DNA of 64,000 nt, from positions 30,786 through 94,785 of the forward strand of contig JACKFN010000005.1 of assembly GCA_020632445.1 (NCBI GenBank), written 5' to 3'. This DNA comes from Candidatus Nomurabacteria bacterium. GTDB lineage: Bacteria > Patescibacteriota > Patescibacteriia > Magasanikbacterales > UBA922. Under the pieces are notes generated by a model. It made no database searches. It was not told the DNA's origin and saw only the letters and a list, made by a program, of their open reading frames with translations. Below, in pieces: positions 4,701 to 47,033 of this stretch. Positions within the stretch are counted from its first letter, which is position 1; each line of letters begins with the position of its first letter. Position numbers and translations under genes: made by a program.

Positions 4701-5825
4701 CTATTGCCGTATAGGCATAACAAGGTACAAATAATCTTCTTTCCCCTTTCCGCGCATCATACAAGGCGCATCATGAGAATTCATCAAAAATTCCATTTCT
4801 TCACTATCAAGATTTGCCAATCCATCGAGGACGTATCTAAAGTTGAGCAAAATGGCGTTTTCCTCTCCGGCCACTTGCGCTTCCACTTGTGAAGAGTGCT
4901 CACCGGTTTGGCTGCTCATTGAAGCCACCATAACTGCAGACTCAGAAGGACTGAGCGTAAAATTCACTCCGTTTATACCCGTGCTGCTAAACAAACTGGC
5001 CGCTTTGATTTTCTTATGAAACGCATCCACACTCACAATCGCATGTGTTTTAAACTCTGTGGGGATTATTTGTGCATAATCTGGATAACTCCCAGATACC
5101 AGCCGACTCGTTATCTCAAAACTTTCATACCGTACCCCAATCTGATTGTCACTCACCCACATTCGCACTTGTGTTTCCTTTCCAGAATTTTTCACGCTTG
5201 AAAGGAGCCTTGCAACTTCCATTACTGTTTTGATTGGCAAAATACATTGGCGCACATCACTCCCCTGTGCCACCGAAACTTTCTTTTCCGCAAGACGGTA
5301 TGAATCAGTCGCAGCCATTACGAGTCCTTCATACCTGTCGGTAAAAAATCCACAGTACACCCCAGAAAGCTCTGGTCGAATGTCATTTTTGGCGGCGGCA
5401 ATTCCCACTCGTGTTAGGGCATCTGCAAATACGTCTACTAAAATGGTATATACAGAACCTTCTTCTGCTTCTGGAATAATTGGATAATCCTCTGAAGGGC
5501 TTCCCTTAATTTTGGTTGATGAGTCATTACAAGAAACCACCAATTCATTTTCCTCAACGGATATTTCAATTTGTTCATCAGATATGAGTGAAACAAAATC
5601 GTAAAGCGTTTTTGCCGGCACGGTAAATTTTCCCGCTATTTCCACCTTGGCACGCAGACTGCACTTTACCACCATTTCAAGATTGGTACTCACAAACTCT
5701 ACTCTAGATTCTGTTGCGTCAATCAAAACATTACTCAGTATTGGAAGATTGGACTGTTTACCAGCAAGTGGGGCAACTAAATTAAGTGCTCCTACAAGAT
5801 TTTCTTTCGTACAAACAAATTTCAT
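4701..5825 (-). CDS. dnaN: DNA polymerase III subunit beta (sliding clamp)
   Basis: 374 aa, MKFVCTKENLVGALNLVAPLAGKQSNLPILSNVLIDATESRVEFVSTNLEM..., three-domain clamp pattern; sits immediately downstream of dnaA as in most bacteria. Confidence 0.95.
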   Translation of the reverse strand: MKFVCTKENLVGALNLVAPLAGKQSNLPILSNVLIDATESRVEFVSTNLEMVVKCSLRAKVEIAGKFTVPAKTLYDFVSLISDEQIEISVEENELVVSCNDSSTKIKGSPSEDYPIIPEAEEGSVYTILVDVFADALTRVGIAAAKNDIRPELSGVYCGFFTDRYEGLVMAATDSYRLAEKKVSVAQGSDVRQCILPIKTVMEVARLLSSVKNSGKETQVRMWVSDNQIGVRYESFEITSRLVSGSYPDYAQIIPTEFKTHAIVSVDAFHKKIKAASLFSSTGINGVNFTLSPSESAVMVASMSSQTGEHSSQVEAQVAGEENAILLNFRYVLDGLANLDSEEMEFLMNSHDAPCMMRGKGKEDYLYLVMPIRQ

Positions 5826-6127
5826 ATGACTTCCTTCTTGAGGTGTTTATAACCCGTGAGGGTTTGTATTCTTTTTCTAAAAAAATATTAGTATTAGTAA
5901 TAGGCGTTGTGGACAGTGGGGATAACTTGAAATTTCTTGCTTATTTGAGAGCAAAAAAGCGTTTTTCCACATGCGTATAATGCGTGTGTGGAAACTCTCC
6001 CAACTGTGAACAATTTTTCTTCTCCATTTTTTCTTGTGGATAGGTATCGTCTTCCTACACAAGAAATCCCAATCTTTTATACACACCTATGCCCAGCTTT
6101 ATCCACGATAATGGGGATAAATTCAGA
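5826..6127. promoter_or_regulatory. Candidate oriC: dnaA-dnaN intergenic region with at least 6 DnaA-box-like 9-mers plus an AT-rich unwinding stretch
   Basis: Boxes within 1 mismatch of TTATCCACA or its complement: TGTGGACAG (5907-5915), TTTTCCACA (5964), TGTGGAAAC (5990), TGTGGATAG (6037), TTATCCACG (6099), GGGGATAAA (6113). AT-rich run TCTTTTTCTAAAAAAATATTAGTATTAGTAATA at 5869-5903. Confidence 0.6.
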
Positions 6128-15781: not shown

Positions 15782-15852
15782 ATTGTGCTTTGTTTAGCGA
15801 AAAAATTGACTATTGTTTCTATCAACATGGTTATTGTATCACAGGTAAGGTC

Positions 15853-15885
15853 TTGACAAAAGAGCAAAAATATGATATAGTATGC
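15853..15885 (+). promoter_or_regulatory. Near-consensus sigma-70 promoter (TTGACA-17 bp-TATAGT) upstream of the 3D-domain gene
   Basis: TTGACAaaagagcaaaaatatgaTATAGT read directly; leaves a roughly 120-nt leader before the 16007 start. Confidence 0.4.
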
Positions 15886-30504: not shown

Positions 30505-30583
30505 AATCCAAAACAAAAAACTTCCATTCAAGGAAGTTTTTTGTTTTCCGGATTGACAAAGGATTTTTTTTGATGAATAATAA

Positions 30584-31006
30584 TTGCGTCCGAGGGAAAA
30601 CATCATCCGCCGGCAATCATGGGGAGAGGTTGCTGCAAACCTCAGGAGGAGCCGAGTGGATATCCGTGAATGGTTGGTAGTGTTGATGGCTGCGGCCACA
30701 ACGTTTTTGGTCGCCGGTGGAGATTACTACTGGCGTCGAGATCGAAAGGTCATGGCCGCGCTATACAGCGCATTGGGAGTGTTCGCGTCAGCTGTCGTTG
30801 GGATCGGGCAAGCTCGAAACCAGGGACTGCAGATCCTGCCAATGTACATCCTCTTTTTCGCACTGGACATGTTTGTCTTCCTTGCGTTCTGGCGTCGCAT
30901 TGCGCACCGTCATTTCGCATGGATGGAAGCGTGCCGGTGGGGACACCGTAATCACACCCCTCTCGCCTCGGGCGCCCATCTCTCTGGTACCGGACCTGCT
31001 GCCTAA
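30584..31006 (+). CDS. Hypothetical 3-TM membrane protein encoded in a GC-rich island
   Basis: 140-aa ORF with three clear hydrophobic helices (LVVLMAAATTFLVAGG, VMAALYSALGVFASAVVGIG, ILPMYILFFALDMFVFLAFW); about 60% GC against an AT-rich background. Downstream TCCTCCCCACCCTTACTCC overlaps the yidD 3' end. Confidence 0.35.
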   Translation: MRPRENIIRRQSWGEVAANLRRSRVDIREWLVVLMAAATTFLVAGGDYYWRRDRKVMAALYSALGVFASAVVGIGQARNQGLQILPMYILFFALDMFVFLAFWRRIAHRHFAWMEACRWGHRNHTPLASGAHLSGTGPAA

Positions 31007-31029
31007 ATCCTAGCGGCAGGCCGGACAAC

Positions 31030-31269
31030 TCATGCAACGTCCTCCCCACCCTTACTCCATGGATTACAACGCAGTATTCTCCAGATCGTCTTGAGTGAGC
31101 CAATAAAGGCTCCATTTTTTTTTATGGATTCGATTGCGTATTGGCTACAGGTTGGATGAAATTTGCAGTATCCTTGTGGGAAGAACCGTCTCACCCAGCT
31201 ATGATCTGGTGAAAGGGTTTTTTGATAGACTATGATACAGCCGATCAAAAATTTTTGTAGGATATTCAT
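31030..31269 (-). CDS. yidD: Membrane protein insertion efficiency factor YidD
   Basis: 79 aa with the conserved CKFHPTCSQYAIESIKKNG and RILRCNPWSKGG motifs; directly downstream of rnpA. Confidence 0.85.
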   Translation of the reverse strand: MNILQKFLIGCIIVYQKTLSPDHSWVRRFFPQGYCKFHPTCSQYAIESIKKNGAFIGSLKTIWRILRCNPWSKGGEDVA

Positions 31270-32801: not shown

Positions 32802-32884
32802 TATGCCAGTAGTATATCAGATATGGTGTGAAAATCAAGGCTCATGCCTTGCCTACTCTGGGTATAATTTTTTCAAATATAAAA

Positions 32885-33300
32885 GGCCCTGACGCCTTGG
32901 GTATAGAATTTGTGCGCGGGCCTTAGAAGCATCCGCCGGTGCCAGCTACCAACTGTCTGGTCGCATAAACGCTCAAACAGTTAGTAACCGGCAATCCATG
33001 CGGATTGCGGTTAATACATCTTCACCGCCTGCAGTGGTGTTGAAGCTCGACGACACGGGATAAACACGTGACGCATGATTGAGCAGCACCGACTCGGATC
33101 CTTTTTCCGCTCTTTTGGGGCGAGCTACCTATTTTCGCTTTTGTTTTTATTTTTGAGTCCTTCGGAATGCACATAGTGCACTCTGGGGCTTGTCCTACGA
33201 AGGGGTAAAAGAAGGATCCAAGGTAACTCAGGCAGACATAAGATGTAGACCTGTCCTCAGGAGAGCTCCTGGGTCAAGGTCTTGTAAAGATCAGATCAGC
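32885..33300 (-). ncRNA. Candidate structured non-coding RNA (about 410 nt, GC-rich) of unassigned family, ending in an intrinsic terminator on the minus strand
   Basis: About 415 bp at roughly 55% GC with no credible ORF. Local hairpins include CCGGCAATCC-atgc-GGATTGCGG. On the minus strand the 3' end GGCCCGCGCacaaattctatacccaaGGCGTCAGGGCC is followed by UUUU. No GGAAAGUCC (RNase P P4), tRNA-like T-arm/ACCA (tmRNA) or SRP domain-IV motif found. Confidence 0.35.
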
Positions 33301-33387
33301 ATTTGTTTGATCTTGCATATACTATACCATAAAAAACCGAAAAAGTCAATAGTGCCCATTTTTTCTCTTAAATTAGGAGCTTTTTGC

Positions 33388-33525
33388 TGTGGATAATACA
33401 TTCTGTTTGTATACACTAGTCTATACAAACAGAATTATTGATGGTTTTCTGGAAAATGTTATCCACAATTTATGGTGTTTTTCCACAGACTTATCCACAT
33501 CTTGTGGAAAATCAGTGGAAATGTG
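33388..33525. promoter_or_regulatory. Ectopic DnaA-box cluster (at least 7 boxes in about 140 bp)
   Basis: TGTGGATAA (33388), TTATCCACA (33449), TTTTCCACA (33480), TTATCCACA (33491), TGTGGAAAA (33503), AGTGGAAAT (33514), TGTGGAAAA (33522); bracketed by two copies of the P1 palindrome. Confidence 0.6.
33401..33434. repeat. P1 palindrome copy 1 (TTCTGTTTGTATACACTAGTCTATACAAACAGAA)
   Basis: 34-bp near-perfect palindrome, one central mismatch. Confidence 0.9.
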
Positions 33526-33536
33526 GAAAATTGACC

Positions 33537-33563
33537 CTGTTTGTATAGACTAGTGTATACAAA
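33537..33563. repeat. P1 palindrome copy 2 (CTGTTTGTATAGACTAGTGTATACAAA)
   Basis: Read directly. Confidence 0.9.
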
Positions 33564-33603
33564 TGGGGTATTATGGGGGAGTCATAGCAATGGAGGGCAA
33601 GAT

Positions 33604-33954
33604 ATGGCAGTCGTCCCAACATACTGGGTGTTGGAGGATGAGGTTCTCACGTTTATTTACTGCCTCATACCAGGGCATGATATGGGGTACGGGAGTCTGG
33701 GGCATCGCCTGGTCGTGGTGAAGGTCTTATACGAGCTCTACCTCGATCAGAGTGATCAGGTCGAGAACGTTAGGTTTTCGAGCACAGATGGTCTGCTAGC
33801 GGCTTTGTCGTGGCTTGTGGCAGACGGACACGTTGAGAAATTTGAGATTGAGCATGTCTGCGACTGGGTGTTCGGTTGTTTCTATGAAACTAACTTGGAG
33901 GACTCACCTCAGTCTCGAGGACCAGCGGTCCCTCGTACTTTTTTCCTTTTCTAA
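33604..33954 (+). CDS. Hypothetical protein (116 aa), moderately GC-rich
   Basis: GGAGGG Shine-Dalgarno 6 nt upstream of the ATG at 33604 (MAVVPTYWVLEDEV...). The TAA stop is followed by CTTTCTCCCACCTCCCTAATC. The track ORF starts inside the P1 repeat. Confidence 0.35.
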   Translation: MAVVPTYWVLEDEVLTFIYCLIPGHDMGYGSLGHRLVVVKVLYELYLDQSDQVENVRFSSTDGLLAALSWLVADGHVEKFEIEHVCDWVFGCFYETNLEDSPQSRGPAVPRTFFLF

Positions 33955-45062: not shown

Positions 45063-45097
45063 ATGTGGATATCCTGTGAAAAAGTTGTGGTTTTTTA

Positions 45098-45129
45098 TCT
45101 GTTTGTATACACTAGTGTATACAAACAGA
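45098..45129. repeat. P1 palindrome copy 3 (TCTGTTTGTATACACTAGTGTATACAAACAGA, perfect 32-mer)
   Basis: Read directly; a DnaA-box-like TGTGGATAT lies 26 bp upstream (45064). Confidence 0.9.
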
Positions 45130-45413: not shown

Positions 45414-45854
45414 ATGGAATTTGCCCTTCGCTCTGCAACAATTGATGATAAAGAATTTCTCTATCAGCTGAATAAATCAACCATGAGTTCCCATGTTGAG
45501 AGAATTTGGGGTTCTTGGGATGATGCATGGCAAAGAGATAACTTTGATAAGAAGTTCACTCTCGAGGGTTATGACGTCATTGATGTAGATGGTCGTAATG
45601 CAGGTGCTCTATGGGTTTCACGTGAAACATCTCAAATAAAGGTAGAAAGGCTGCATATCCTCTCTGAATTTCAGGGGCGTGGTATAGGAACGCGTATTCT
45701 TAGAAATCTCATAAGAGAGGCTAGTGATCAGTCAAGGGAGATCGTTTTAAGCGTTTTAAGAACAAATACTCGTGCAAAATCATTGTATGAGCGTCTTGGC
45801 TTTGAGGAGATTGGTAATGACGGGAATAAGTTTCACATGAAACATTTTGTTTAA
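45414..45854 (+). CDS. GNAT-family N-acetyltransferase
   Basis: About 147 aa; acetyl-CoA binding motif QGRGIGTRILRNLIREA and C-terminal LYERLGFEE. The last codons overlap a P2-type palindrome (GTTTCACATGAAACAT). Confidence 0.7.
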   Translation: MEFALRSATIDDKEFLYQLNKSTMSSHVERIWGSWDDAWQRDNFDKKFTLEGYDVIDVDGRNAGALWVSRETSQIKVERLHILSEFQGRGIGTRILRNLIREASDQSREIVLSVLRTNTRAKSLYERLGFEEIGNDGNKFHMKHFV

Positions 45855-45889: not shown

Positions 45890-46096
45890 TGACAAAAAAA
45901 CACCTCTTAGGGTGTTTTTTAATTTGCAGCTGGGGCTCTAGTGCTAGTATGCGAAACCGTTGATCCTCCAGAGTTCTACATCTCGACATATGCGCTGTAC
46001 TCAAATTCCCTATCTAGGCACTATGTGGGTTGTTGATTACTCCAAAGGGGATCTGTTTGCGATTAGCATCAATTATGCGGTTTTTTTGAATTGGGC

Positions 46097-46110
46097 GTTT
46101 CACGTGAAAC
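46097..46110. repeat. P2 palindrome (GTTTCACGTGAAAC) copy; other copies at 45830..45845 (CACATG variant) and 46268..46283
   Basis: Read directly; 14-16-bp perfect palindrome around a CACGTG core. Confidence 0.85.
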
Positions 46111-46235
46111 ATTGCATAGAAAAGTGCTTTAGGTGCATAGATTGTACTATATGGGGAAAGTGGAGTGCAAATGCCCTGCCAAAAAGGAATCTGCAGAGGT
46201 GTTTGTCTGTGTGGATAACCTACAAAGAATGACGT

Positions 46236-46260
46236 GTTTGTATACACTAGTGTATACAAA
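46236..46260. repeat. P1 palindrome copy 5 (GTTTGTATACACTAGTGTATACAAA); perfect DnaA box TGTGGATAA at 46210..46218 just upstream
   Basis: Read directly. Confidence 0.9.
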
Positions 46261-46267
46261 TAGACTA

Positions 46268-46283
46268 TGTTTCACGTGAAACA
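46268..46283. repeat. P2 palindrome copy (TGTTTCACGTGAAACA) abutting the stop codon of the TrmB-like gene
   Basis: Read directly. Confidence 0.85.
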
Positions 46284-47033
46284 TTAATCTATTTTCGGCA
46301 TAACACGGGTTGTCTGCCATAGCACACTAAAGAGATTTTTTTGTGTCTGAGAGTAATCGGTGGATTCTATAATAAGGGCAAACCCCTCACGCTTTGTACT
46401 GAGTACAACTACTTTGTTGTCATAAAGATATGTTGAGGTAGGAAAGATCATCTCAGCTGGTGCAAAGTGAACCGTGCGCAGCTCCTTGTCACTCGAGGCC
46501 CAGTCCTGGTCAATATCTTTGTCCTGGGAGCGTATGACATCAAGATGAATACCTAGGGATATTCGCTGCTGGATATGCTCATCCATAAAGGATTTTCCAA
46601 CGGTCTTGTAAAGATCCTCCATGGAAAGAATGGCACAAAGTTTTCTATTTTTGACGGTAAGTATATCGTTGAAAACAGATTGCATGCCATCTTGTCCCTC
46701 AAATATTCTTGTCCTAGGCTTGGTACCATTTGGGTTATAGAGTGCCATGAGATCTGGCAATGATTCATCAAGCTTTCTTTGCTTGCGACGAAGAAGGGAT
46801 TGAAGCATGTTCGGATTTTCTGCTGTATATATGCGAGTTCTGCCTTGCAAGACATAACTAACCACACCTATACTGCACAGTTGTTGAAGGATCTCATGTG
46901 TGGTGGTTCTGGGAAGCTGCGCATGATTGGCAACATCCTGTGCAGAGCCTGATCCAATCTCAAGAGTCGCAATAAAGACTTTTGCCTTTGATTTGTCGAT
47001 CCCAAATTCGCTCAATGCAGAGTAAATTGACAT
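46284..47033 (-). CDS. TrmB-like winged-helix transcriptional regulator (paralogue 5, solo)
   Basis: MSIYSALSEFGIDKSKAKVFIATLEIGSGSAQDVANHAQLPRTTTHEILQQLCSIGVV...; C-terminal LFSVLWQTT. Confidence 0.6.
   Translation of the reverse strand: MSIYSALSEFGIDKSKAKVFIATLEIGSGSAQDVANHAQLPRTTTHEILQQLCSIGVVSYVLQGRTRIYTAENPNMLQSLLRRKQRKLDESLPDLMALYNPNGTKPRTRIFEGQDGMQSVFNDILTVKNRKLCAILSMEDLYKTVGKSFMDEHIQQRISLGIHLDVIRSQDKDIDQDWASSDKELRTVHFAPAEMIFPTSTYLYDNKVVVLSTKREGFALIIESTDYSQTQKNLFSVLWQTTRVMPKID

Follow-up and report, generated by a model that had tools for sequence, protein, structure and literature searches.

Why should a dense cluster of DnaA boxes lie some 26 kb from dnaA, between two copies of one palindrome? 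We addressed this question in a 64-kb stretch of contig JACKFN010000005.1 from a Candidatus Nomurabacteria bacterium of the Magasanikbacterales (hereafter the window), in which the cluster belongs to an element at positions 33388–33566 (the module); the palindrome, which is 24 bp long, is termed P1. A preliminary description of this DNA had offered three roles for the cluster, namely titration of DnaA, regulation of neighbouring genes, or the remnant of an integrated replicon origin. The evidence favours the second of these, nothing requires the first, and the third is not supported. We show that DnaA boxes and P1 form a rigid composite under purifying selection, placed immediately upstream of a near-consensus promoter that serves a structured RNA. 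Judging from the sequence, we consider it reasonably probable that DnaA and a lineage-specific repressor jointly control the module as a promoter region, in the manner of a Bacillus subtilis DnaA-box cluster. All genomes compared come from uncultivated organisms; the two closest relatives of the window, L120 and L122, were aligned with it to give a footprint of the locus. From the distal P1 towards the RNA promoter, the module consists of the following parts.

33540–33563 (extended palindrome 33537–33566), no strand: distal P1 operator, core TTTGTATAGACTAGTGTATACAAA, overlapping the −35 and spacer of the predicted promoter of orf116, a small divergent gene; core invariant in the window, L120 and L122
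33503–33530, minus strand: lineage-specific insertion with inverted one-mismatch boxes TTTTCCACA at 33503–33511 and 33522–33530 and a degenerate box at 33514–33522
33459–33499, minus strand: co-oriented DnaA-box trio, made up of TGTGGATAA (33499–33491), 3 bp, TGTGGAAAA (33487–33479), 11 bp and TGTGGATAA (33467–33459)
33430–33458, no strand: AT-rich spacer from the trio to the proximal P1, unconserved in sequence
33406–33429 (extended palindrome 33400–33435), no strand: proximal P1 operator, core TTTGTATACACTAGTCTATACAAA
33388–33396, minus strand: perfect DnaA box TTATCCACA, lying between the proximal P1 (9 bp away) and the −35 (about 39 bp away); kept in L120

The perfect box TTATCCACA occurs in the module at 33388 (−), 33459 (+) and 33491 (+), and the one-mismatch box TTTTCCACA at 33479 (+), 33503 (−) and 33522 (−). 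Read along the plus strand, these appear as TGTGGATAA at 33388, TTATCCACA at 33459 and 33491, TTTTCCACA at 33479, and TGTGGAAAA at 33503 and 33522. Together with the degenerate box AGTGGAAAT (33514–33522), which has three mismatches, the 143 bp from 33388 to 33530 therefore hold three perfect, three one-mismatch and one degenerate box. The earlier count of seven boxes in about 140 bp stands, but not its make-up, which had included four one-mismatch boxes. The claim that the cluster is enriched above chance is upheld: perfect boxes number seven in the whole 64-kb window against 0.52 expected by shuffling, and none of 100 shuffles reached seven. At the window-wide rate of 43 boxes per 64 kb, about 0.1 would be expected in 143 bp. 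P1 itself is present five times in the window, with 0 expected. As had been described, two of these copies bracket the cluster; they are exact reverse complements across 27 nt and enclose a 104-bp segment. Both carry the same single asymmetry, with the variant half-site facing inward in each.

The cluster is ectopic, because dnaA (minus strand, 6128 to about 7490) and dnaN (4701–5825) lie at the GC-skew minimum, near position 6000, with box clusters of their own. The 26 kb previously given as the distance to dnaA is correct. At 33 kb the cumulative GC skew is climbing smoothly, with no disturbance at the module.

Is the arrangement peculiar to this genome? We scanned one genome per species for the exact P1 24-mer and found, among the matches listed, at least 118 loci, nearly all of them in metagenome-assembled genomes of Magasanikbacteria, with a few from Falkowbacteria and Kuenenbacteria. 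Among these matches, loci are few per genome and fall into recurrent classes. Comparison across relatives places the same module, which defines class a, at the orthologous position in Magasanikbacteria, in at least 28 genomes; a non-coding transcript and then a dksA-like gene lie downstream of it. Among the matches listed, the P1 pair lies 430–690 bp upstream of the dksA homologue in 25 species-level genomes, to which L120 and L122 can be added; the two copies are 102–148 bp apart across class a. Gene order is dksA-lspA-comM in most relatives, with comM upstream instead in the sublineage of the window. Running towards dksA, the distal P1 is followed after 0–2 bp by the perfect box TGTGGATAA, then after 3 bp by a weaker box (TGTGnAnAA) and after a further 11 bp by a weak box (often TGTGyAyAAC). 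An AT-rich spacer of about 55 bp leads from there to the proximal P1, and a promoter (TTGACA, 17 bp, TGnTATACT) begins 3–5 bp or 64–77 bp further on.

The number, order and orientation of the trio boxes, their 3-bp and 11-bp gaps, and their spacing relative to P1 and the promoter are kept in at least 22 of the 28 orthologous modules, which come from different species. This pattern points to regulation of the neighbouring genes as the probable function of the cluster. Total mismatches to the trio are 0–6 of 27, against 13.2 on average, and 9 at the first percentile, in random 240-bp segments. Along the footprint alignment of the window, L120 and L122, the columns without change fall in the P1 cores, in the three boxes of the trio, in the −35 and −10 elements and at the 5′ end of the RNA, whose conservation begins just downstream of the promoter; the spacers differ. 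The insertion, which is about 35 bp long, was gained in the window and is not found in L120 or L122. With box 1 of the trio it makes an oppositely oriented pair with a 3-bp gap.

What does the module stand in front of? The two features immediately downstream of it are as follows.

33321–33349, minus strand: sigma-70-type promoter of the non-coding RNA, TTGACT, 17 bp, TGnTATAGT; 10 of 12 matches, extended −10
32883–33313, minus strand: conserved structured non-coding RNA, about 430 nt long and closed by an intrinsic terminator (32898–32883); no Rfam family

The preliminary description had placed an unassigned GC-rich RNA next to the cluster, and this RNA proves to be real: promoter and terminator are both present, its fold is strongly structured, relatives keep it (L120, 8146–8582; L122, 8186–8616) and it belongs to no Rfam family. 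Its fold has a z-score of −5.9 relative to shuffles, and compensatory changes, in which both sides are altered and pairing is kept, affect 21 of 120 predicted pairs among the window, L120 and L122. We rejected a coding reading of the region, as frames shift between the conserved blocks and tblastx gave no signal to L122. Rfam offered no family for the RNA in a gathering scan of the window, a scan of 18 related loci or two permissive scans of the RNA region; these returned only tRNAs and noise. ARAGORN found no transfer-messenger RNA (tmRNA), and by eye we saw no signature motifs of RNase P, signal recognition particle RNA or tmRNA. The RNA contains a conserved single-stranded A-rich stretch, AAAAAUAAAAACAAAAGCGAAAAUA.

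In the relatives, the region downstream of the promoter is likewise non-coding and terminator-ended, and it aligns within sub-groups with compensatory changes. Structured RNAs of 330–390 nt occupy the equivalent place and share the 5′ motif UCUUUACAA. From their position, the shared module and this motif, we infer that the window-type and distant-type RNAs are equivalent. The second hairpin of the distant-type RNA (+25 to +50; for example in L108 and L115) is made of inverted DnaA-box-like halves, TATCCAC...GTGGATA or TGTCCAC...GTGGACA, which may serve as a stem of the RNA, as a downstream operator for DnaA, or in both ways.

Do DnaA boxes and P1 also occur together away from dksA? The proposal that a box and P1 form a composite repeated unit is borne out. 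Perfect boxes are enriched 25–40-fold within 50 bp of P1 in three of the four locus classes (2.7–4.5 per kb in class a, class c and the class of other loci, against 0.113 per kb overall), in two fixed geometries. Good matches to the trio lie within 150 bp of P1 in 30 of 33 cases (about 950 kb); the three exceptions are two modules with a degenerate P1 and one dnaA–dnaN spacer. The last of these, in relative L052 (2098–2138), is a trio with 3-bp and 11-bp spacing between dnaA and dnaN. Its location supports the view that DnaA reads this architecture, and suggests that the same architecture is also used at an origin.

Class c and the other loci have a single P1, which lies near rmuC, near a gene for a 770-aa tetratricopeptide-repeat (TPR) membrane protein, or near a Vut_1 transporter gene, a TrmB-like gene and others. 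At these loci, the trio lies to one side of P1, with the strong box 38–40 bp off and a weak box abutting P1, and a parS-like site (TGTTTCACGTGAAACA) is often found 27–93 bp from P1 on the side opposite the trio. Copies 3–5 of P1 in the window (at 45102, 45865 and 46237) are of the class c or other type, and two of them are parts of composite sites.

45064–45125, no strand: second composite site, upstream of rmuC, with a one-mismatch box ATATCCACA (45064–45072), weaker boxes and P1 copy 3 (45102–45125)
46210–46283, no strand: third composite site, at the 3′ end of the TrmB-like gene, with a perfect box (46210–46218), P1 copy 5 (46237–46260) and a perfect parS-like site (46268–46283)

A strong box 38–40 bp before P1 is found in the same geometry at the rmuC and TPR loci of relatives. 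Perfect boxes had been reported just upstream of both P1 copies 3 and 5. The box at 46210 is indeed perfect, but that at 45064 has one mismatch (ATATCCACA). Units of P1 and boxes had been thought worth seeking elsewhere in the genome and on plasmids and phage; the composite recurs at rmuC and other loci, but we obtained no plasmid, phage or viral match. Four parS-like sites with 0–2 mismatches to TGTTTCACGTGAAACA (45614–45629, 45829–45844, 46096–46111 and 46268–46283) are interleaved with P1 copies 3–5 in the window, and this stretch surrounds a tRNA-Arg, a gene for a GCN5-related N-acetyltransferase (GNAT) and rmuC. The TrmB-like regulator gene (46284–47033, minus strand), which has P1 and parS at its 3′ end, also lies beside P1 in L026, L037, L062, L076, L080, L088 and L117.

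Class b loci contain two or three P1 sites about 77–89 bp apart, between a small excisionase-like helix-turn-helix (HTH) gene and a divergent gene for an extracytoplasmic function (ECF)-type sigma factor. These arrays show no DnaA-box enrichment (0.10 per kb, equal to background). In about 40 loci among the matches listed, the HTH-proximal P1 extends from the final base of the −10 to a point 5–10 bp short of the ATG. The HTH protein is about 120 aa long and matches Pfam HTH_17 and TIGR01764, both weakly; a comparison of this candidate P1-binding protein with the PDB gave no hit. Its gene arrangement makes it the likely regulator of the whole P1 regulon. The sigma factor of the class b loci (L016–L114; for example L068, 2872–3072, and L075, 4894–5098) is BldN-like. 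We also considered P1 as a LexA/SOS operator and rejected this: P1 is associated with rmuC and comM, but tblastn detected no LexA homologue in the window or in about 120 loci that carry P1, and the autoregulated gene beside P1 is the excisionase-like HTH gene.

How might these parts act together? In the reading we favour, the promoter at 33349–33321 (minus strand) would drive the RNA of about 430 nt ahead of dksA-lspA-rnpA, and the same region probably also controls orf116 in the sublineage of the window. DnaA would nucleate on the perfect box and cooperatively fill the weaker boxes 3 bp and 11 bp further on, so that occupancy of the trio would track the level of active DnaA. The logic of a strong box combined with low-affinity boxes is known from the oriC arrays of Escherichia coli. 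P1 would be recognised by a dimeric lineage-specific repressor, for which the HTH_17-like protein is the best candidate because its own start site is covered by P1. The two P1-bound dimers would sit on one helical face, as fits the spacing of P1 pairs in steps of about 11 bp, and would contact each other with DnaA-loaded DNA between them. The strong box directly adjoins the distal P1, a position that would force DnaA and the P1 factor to touch or compete. Transcription of the RNA and of orf116 would in this way be coupled both to replication-initiation status and to a signal sensed by the P1 factor.

As to the sign of regulation, the coverage of the HTH-gene start site and the orf116 promoter by P1 inclines us towards repression. 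In L120, a box falls within the −35/spacer region of the RNA promoter, which hints at repression by DnaA. Since the distal P1 overlaps the orf116 promoter and the RNA promoter of the window lies 54 bp beyond the proximal P1, repression would be direct at orf116 and indirect, through the loop or DnaA, at the RNA promoter. Like B. subtilis clusters, the 6–7 boxes would in addition retain some DnaA close to the origin, and DnaA titration is possible as a by-product. A broader scheme, which we put forward tentatively and regard as possible but not probable, is an undescribed cell-cycle regulon in Magasanikbacteria and some neighbouring Candidate Phyla Radiation (CPR) lineages. DnaA and the excisionase-like repressor would co-assemble on the composite of P1 and trio, sometimes with parS, and the targets would be the dksA-adjacent RNA of about 330–430 nt (possibly directed at RNA polymerase), rmuC, comM and the ECF-type sigma factor.

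Several points weigh against co-control by DnaA and a repressor. The trio is weak or shifted in 6 of the 28 modules, and the distance from promoter to proximal P1 varies from 3 to 77 bp among relatives, more than a rigid mechanism would lead one to expect. In the window, about 104 bp separate the centre of the proximal P1 from the predicted start site downstream, too far for P1 to occlude the RNA promoter directly. Phasing of the P1 pairs (spacings clustered at 102, 114, 124, 135 and 146 bp in relatives, with 134 bp in the window; R = 0.81 at a period of 10.5–11 bp, reached by 0 of 5,000 random sets) is suggestive only, because related genomes were treated as independent. With blastn and nhmmer, the window RNA showed no sequence homology to the RNAs found in distant relatives, and only L120 and L122 align with it. 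The gene for the candidate P1-binding HTH protein lies outside the window, and the TrmB-like protein is an alternative candidate for binding P1. Finally, we infer DnaA binding, binding of the HTH protein, the loop and the sign of regulation from sequence patterns.

Other explanations account for parts of these data. The main role of the module might be to control replication, by titrating DnaA near the origin and so delaying re-initiation, with promoter effects secondary. Its three perfect boxes equal the number in the whole dnaA/oriC region of the window, it lies 26 kb from dnaA, and a module of P1 and boxes is found within 2–6 kb of dnaA or dnaN in some relatives; in B. subtilis, clusters outside oriC restrain initiation (PMC3245932). 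However, relatives usually have only three boxes, two of them weak, and titration needs neither the strict 3-bp and 11-bp spacing, nor a fixed register with P1, nor a fixed place upstream of a promoter. Moreover, of about 118 listed loci, each spanning 8 kb, only 3 include dnaA or dnaN, against about 1 expected, which is not significant, and we consider titration unlikely as the main role. Less probable again is an element of the DARS (DnaA-reactivating sequence) or datA type, which would alter the nucleotide state of DnaA through ADP release or ATP hydrolysis. The three-box core with one perfect box does resemble a DARS core and the window alone has an oppositely oriented box 3 bp away from the perfect box, but the conserved trio is wholly co-oriented. 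The opposite box belongs to a recent insertion that is missing from L120, L122 and other relatives, and its gap is 3 bp compared with 5 bp in DARS (PMC6868365). We rate this explanation as very improbable.

The parS-like sites raise a different prospect, that P1, trio and parS form an origin-proximal hub of chromosome organisation in which the P1 binder is a nucleoid or segregation factor working with DnaA and ParB, and in which links to promoters are incidental. Such a hub would account for the parS-like sites that accompany P1 at the rmuC and TPR loci (23 within 100 bp of P1, against about 3.6 expected, among the loci listed), for their interleaving with P1 copies 3–5 in the window and for the location of every P1 of the window within 40 kb of dnaA. 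It fits poorly with P1 loci that are few per genome and sit at the same orthologous promoters, with P1 arrays that have neither DnaA boxes nor parS and show a textbook autorepressor layout, and with a module (33388–33566) that has no parS site. Overall the hub seems improbable, and it is a minority possibility at rmuC-type sites. The 27-nt inverted repeats formed by the P1 copies around the 104-bp segment could also be read as the ends of a miniature inverted-repeat transposable element, or the whole as what remains of an integrated plasmid or phage origin; the preliminary description had seen a discrete element in these brackets. This reading is largely refuted and is the least probable that we considered. 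The module is syntenic across the class, in orthologous position in at least 28 species, with only the binding sites conserved and the spacers diverged; its interior is repeated nowhere else in the window; GC skew is undisturbed; and no rep, integrase or transposase gene lies nearby. P1 was present in 0 of 2.9 million viral contigs, and the region showed no plasmid or phage similarity. A functional replication origin, chromosomal or plasmid, was rejected at this site on the basis of the GC-skew minimum at about 6 kb beside dnaA and dnaN, the lack of a rep or initiator gene near the module, and synteny. The spacer at 33430–33458 (29 bp) is AT-rich, and by eye it contains no TAG/GAT trio repeats and no 13-mer-like run.

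Does the promoter region that we favour have a precedent? In the E. coli gal repressosome, operators 113 bp apart hold a loop that contains HU and the promoters. The module resembles gal in its two identical palindromic operators about 11–13 helical turns apart, phased, with sites for a third protein between them. Unlike gal, its main promoter lies outside the loop and the middle protein would be DnaA; looping is suggested by phasing only. The E. coli datA locus has about five DnaA boxes and an essential IHF site, which promote hydrolysis of DnaA-ATP; the box number of the window is comparable (6–7), against three in relatives. A DARS core comprises three boxes, of which I and II are opposite with a 5-bp gap and II and III are co-oriented (PMC6868365). 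Like E. coli DARS1, the module groups three boxes, one of them perfect and expected to bring DnaA to its weaker neighbours, whereas the Magasanikbacteria trio is co-oriented and an opposite box occurs in the window genome only, at 3 bp.

Where DnaA acts as a transcription factor, as at E. coli dnaA, nrdAB and mioC and at Pseudomonas aeruginosa gidA (PMC13438810), boxes lie upstream of or overlap a sigma-70 promoter, as they do here. The module differs from these single DnaA-regulated promoters in its operator pair, in a strong-plus-weak array that resembles the low-affinity arrays of oriC, and in recurring at several promoters per genome. DnaA-box clusters outside oriC regulate neighbouring genes and restrain initiation in B. 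subtilis (PMC3245932). The likeness to those clusters (Ishikawa/Okumura) extends to consensus boxes, intergenic location, proximity to the origin and position beside promoters. In contrast to them, the core in Magasanikbacteria is three boxes with 3-bp and 11-bp gaps in register with a 24-bp operator, the module is conserved across a CPR class, and its main target is a structured non-coding RNA. We found no sequence or gene-neighbourhood homology to the B. subtilis cluster loci.

DnaA-box clusters that regulate neighbouring genes outside origins are thus an already known kind. We did not find described a three-box array locked to a 24-bp operator, conserved across a CPR class, present at several promoters per genome and fronting an RNA; literature searches for the P1 sequence, and for Magasanikbacteria together with DnaA, returned no papers. 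To our knowledge, almost nothing is known of the control of replication or gene expression in CPR/Patescibacteria, as these organisms are unculturable. The locus supplies parts that can be synthesised, namely the 180-bp module, the cognate DnaA, the candidate 120-aa repressor and the new structured RNA. It would represent the reuse of a strong-plus-weak box array, which origins use to sense ATP-DnaA, as a promoter-linked sensor that works with a second protein. If confirmed, it would give the lineage its first defined DnaA regulon and transcription-factor operator, and would add a new RNA family. If the proposed cell-cycle regulon is true, it would link replication initiation to transcription and DNA processing in uncultured organisms.

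The genes nearest to the module lie on either side of it and are the following.

33604–33954, plus strand: orf116, a divergent small gene with GGAGG 6 nt before its ATG and a predicted promoter (33546–33574) that overlaps the distal P1
32433–32801, minus strand: dksA-like gene for a zinc-finger protein, heading dksA-lspA-rnpA downstream of the RNA, with a promoter-like site of its own (32838–32811)

By tblastn, L120 (35% identity, E 8e-17) and L122 (33%, E 8e-10) each have orf116 at the corresponding site and on the corresponding strand. Its product evolves very fast and has a conserved motif, YCL(I/V)PGHDxGGHR. It belongs to no Pfam or NCBIfam family, a search of a 5.8-billion-protein index returned only the protein itself, and a single-sequence AlphaFold model had a pLDDT (predicted local distance difference test score) of 38 and was discarded. 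To the left of the module, and all on the minus strand, are genes for trigger factor, RnpA, LspA and the DksA-like protein; to the right are genes for the ComM/YifB ATPase and a double winged-helix protein. The closest relatives of ComM come from Candidatus Magasanikbacteria, at 63–73% identity, and an identical comM gene was found on one 9-kb Logan contig only.

Between a small PF1765-like gene and rnpA lies a GC-rich stretch (30580–31100) that gave no Rfam hit; it contains a 140-aa membrane-like open reading frame (30584–31006, plus strand) and overlapping reading frames in other frames. A palindromic motif, TTRGCYAA (TTGGCTAA or TTAGCCAA), recurs in relatives (for example L115, L090, L047 and L103) ahead of strong TTGACA promoters, either 25–35 bp upstream of the proximal P1 or just after it, and a similar TTTAGC...TTGACA...TATAGTA element is found at 15792–15882 in the window. 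This motif may be an UP-like element or a site for another factor.

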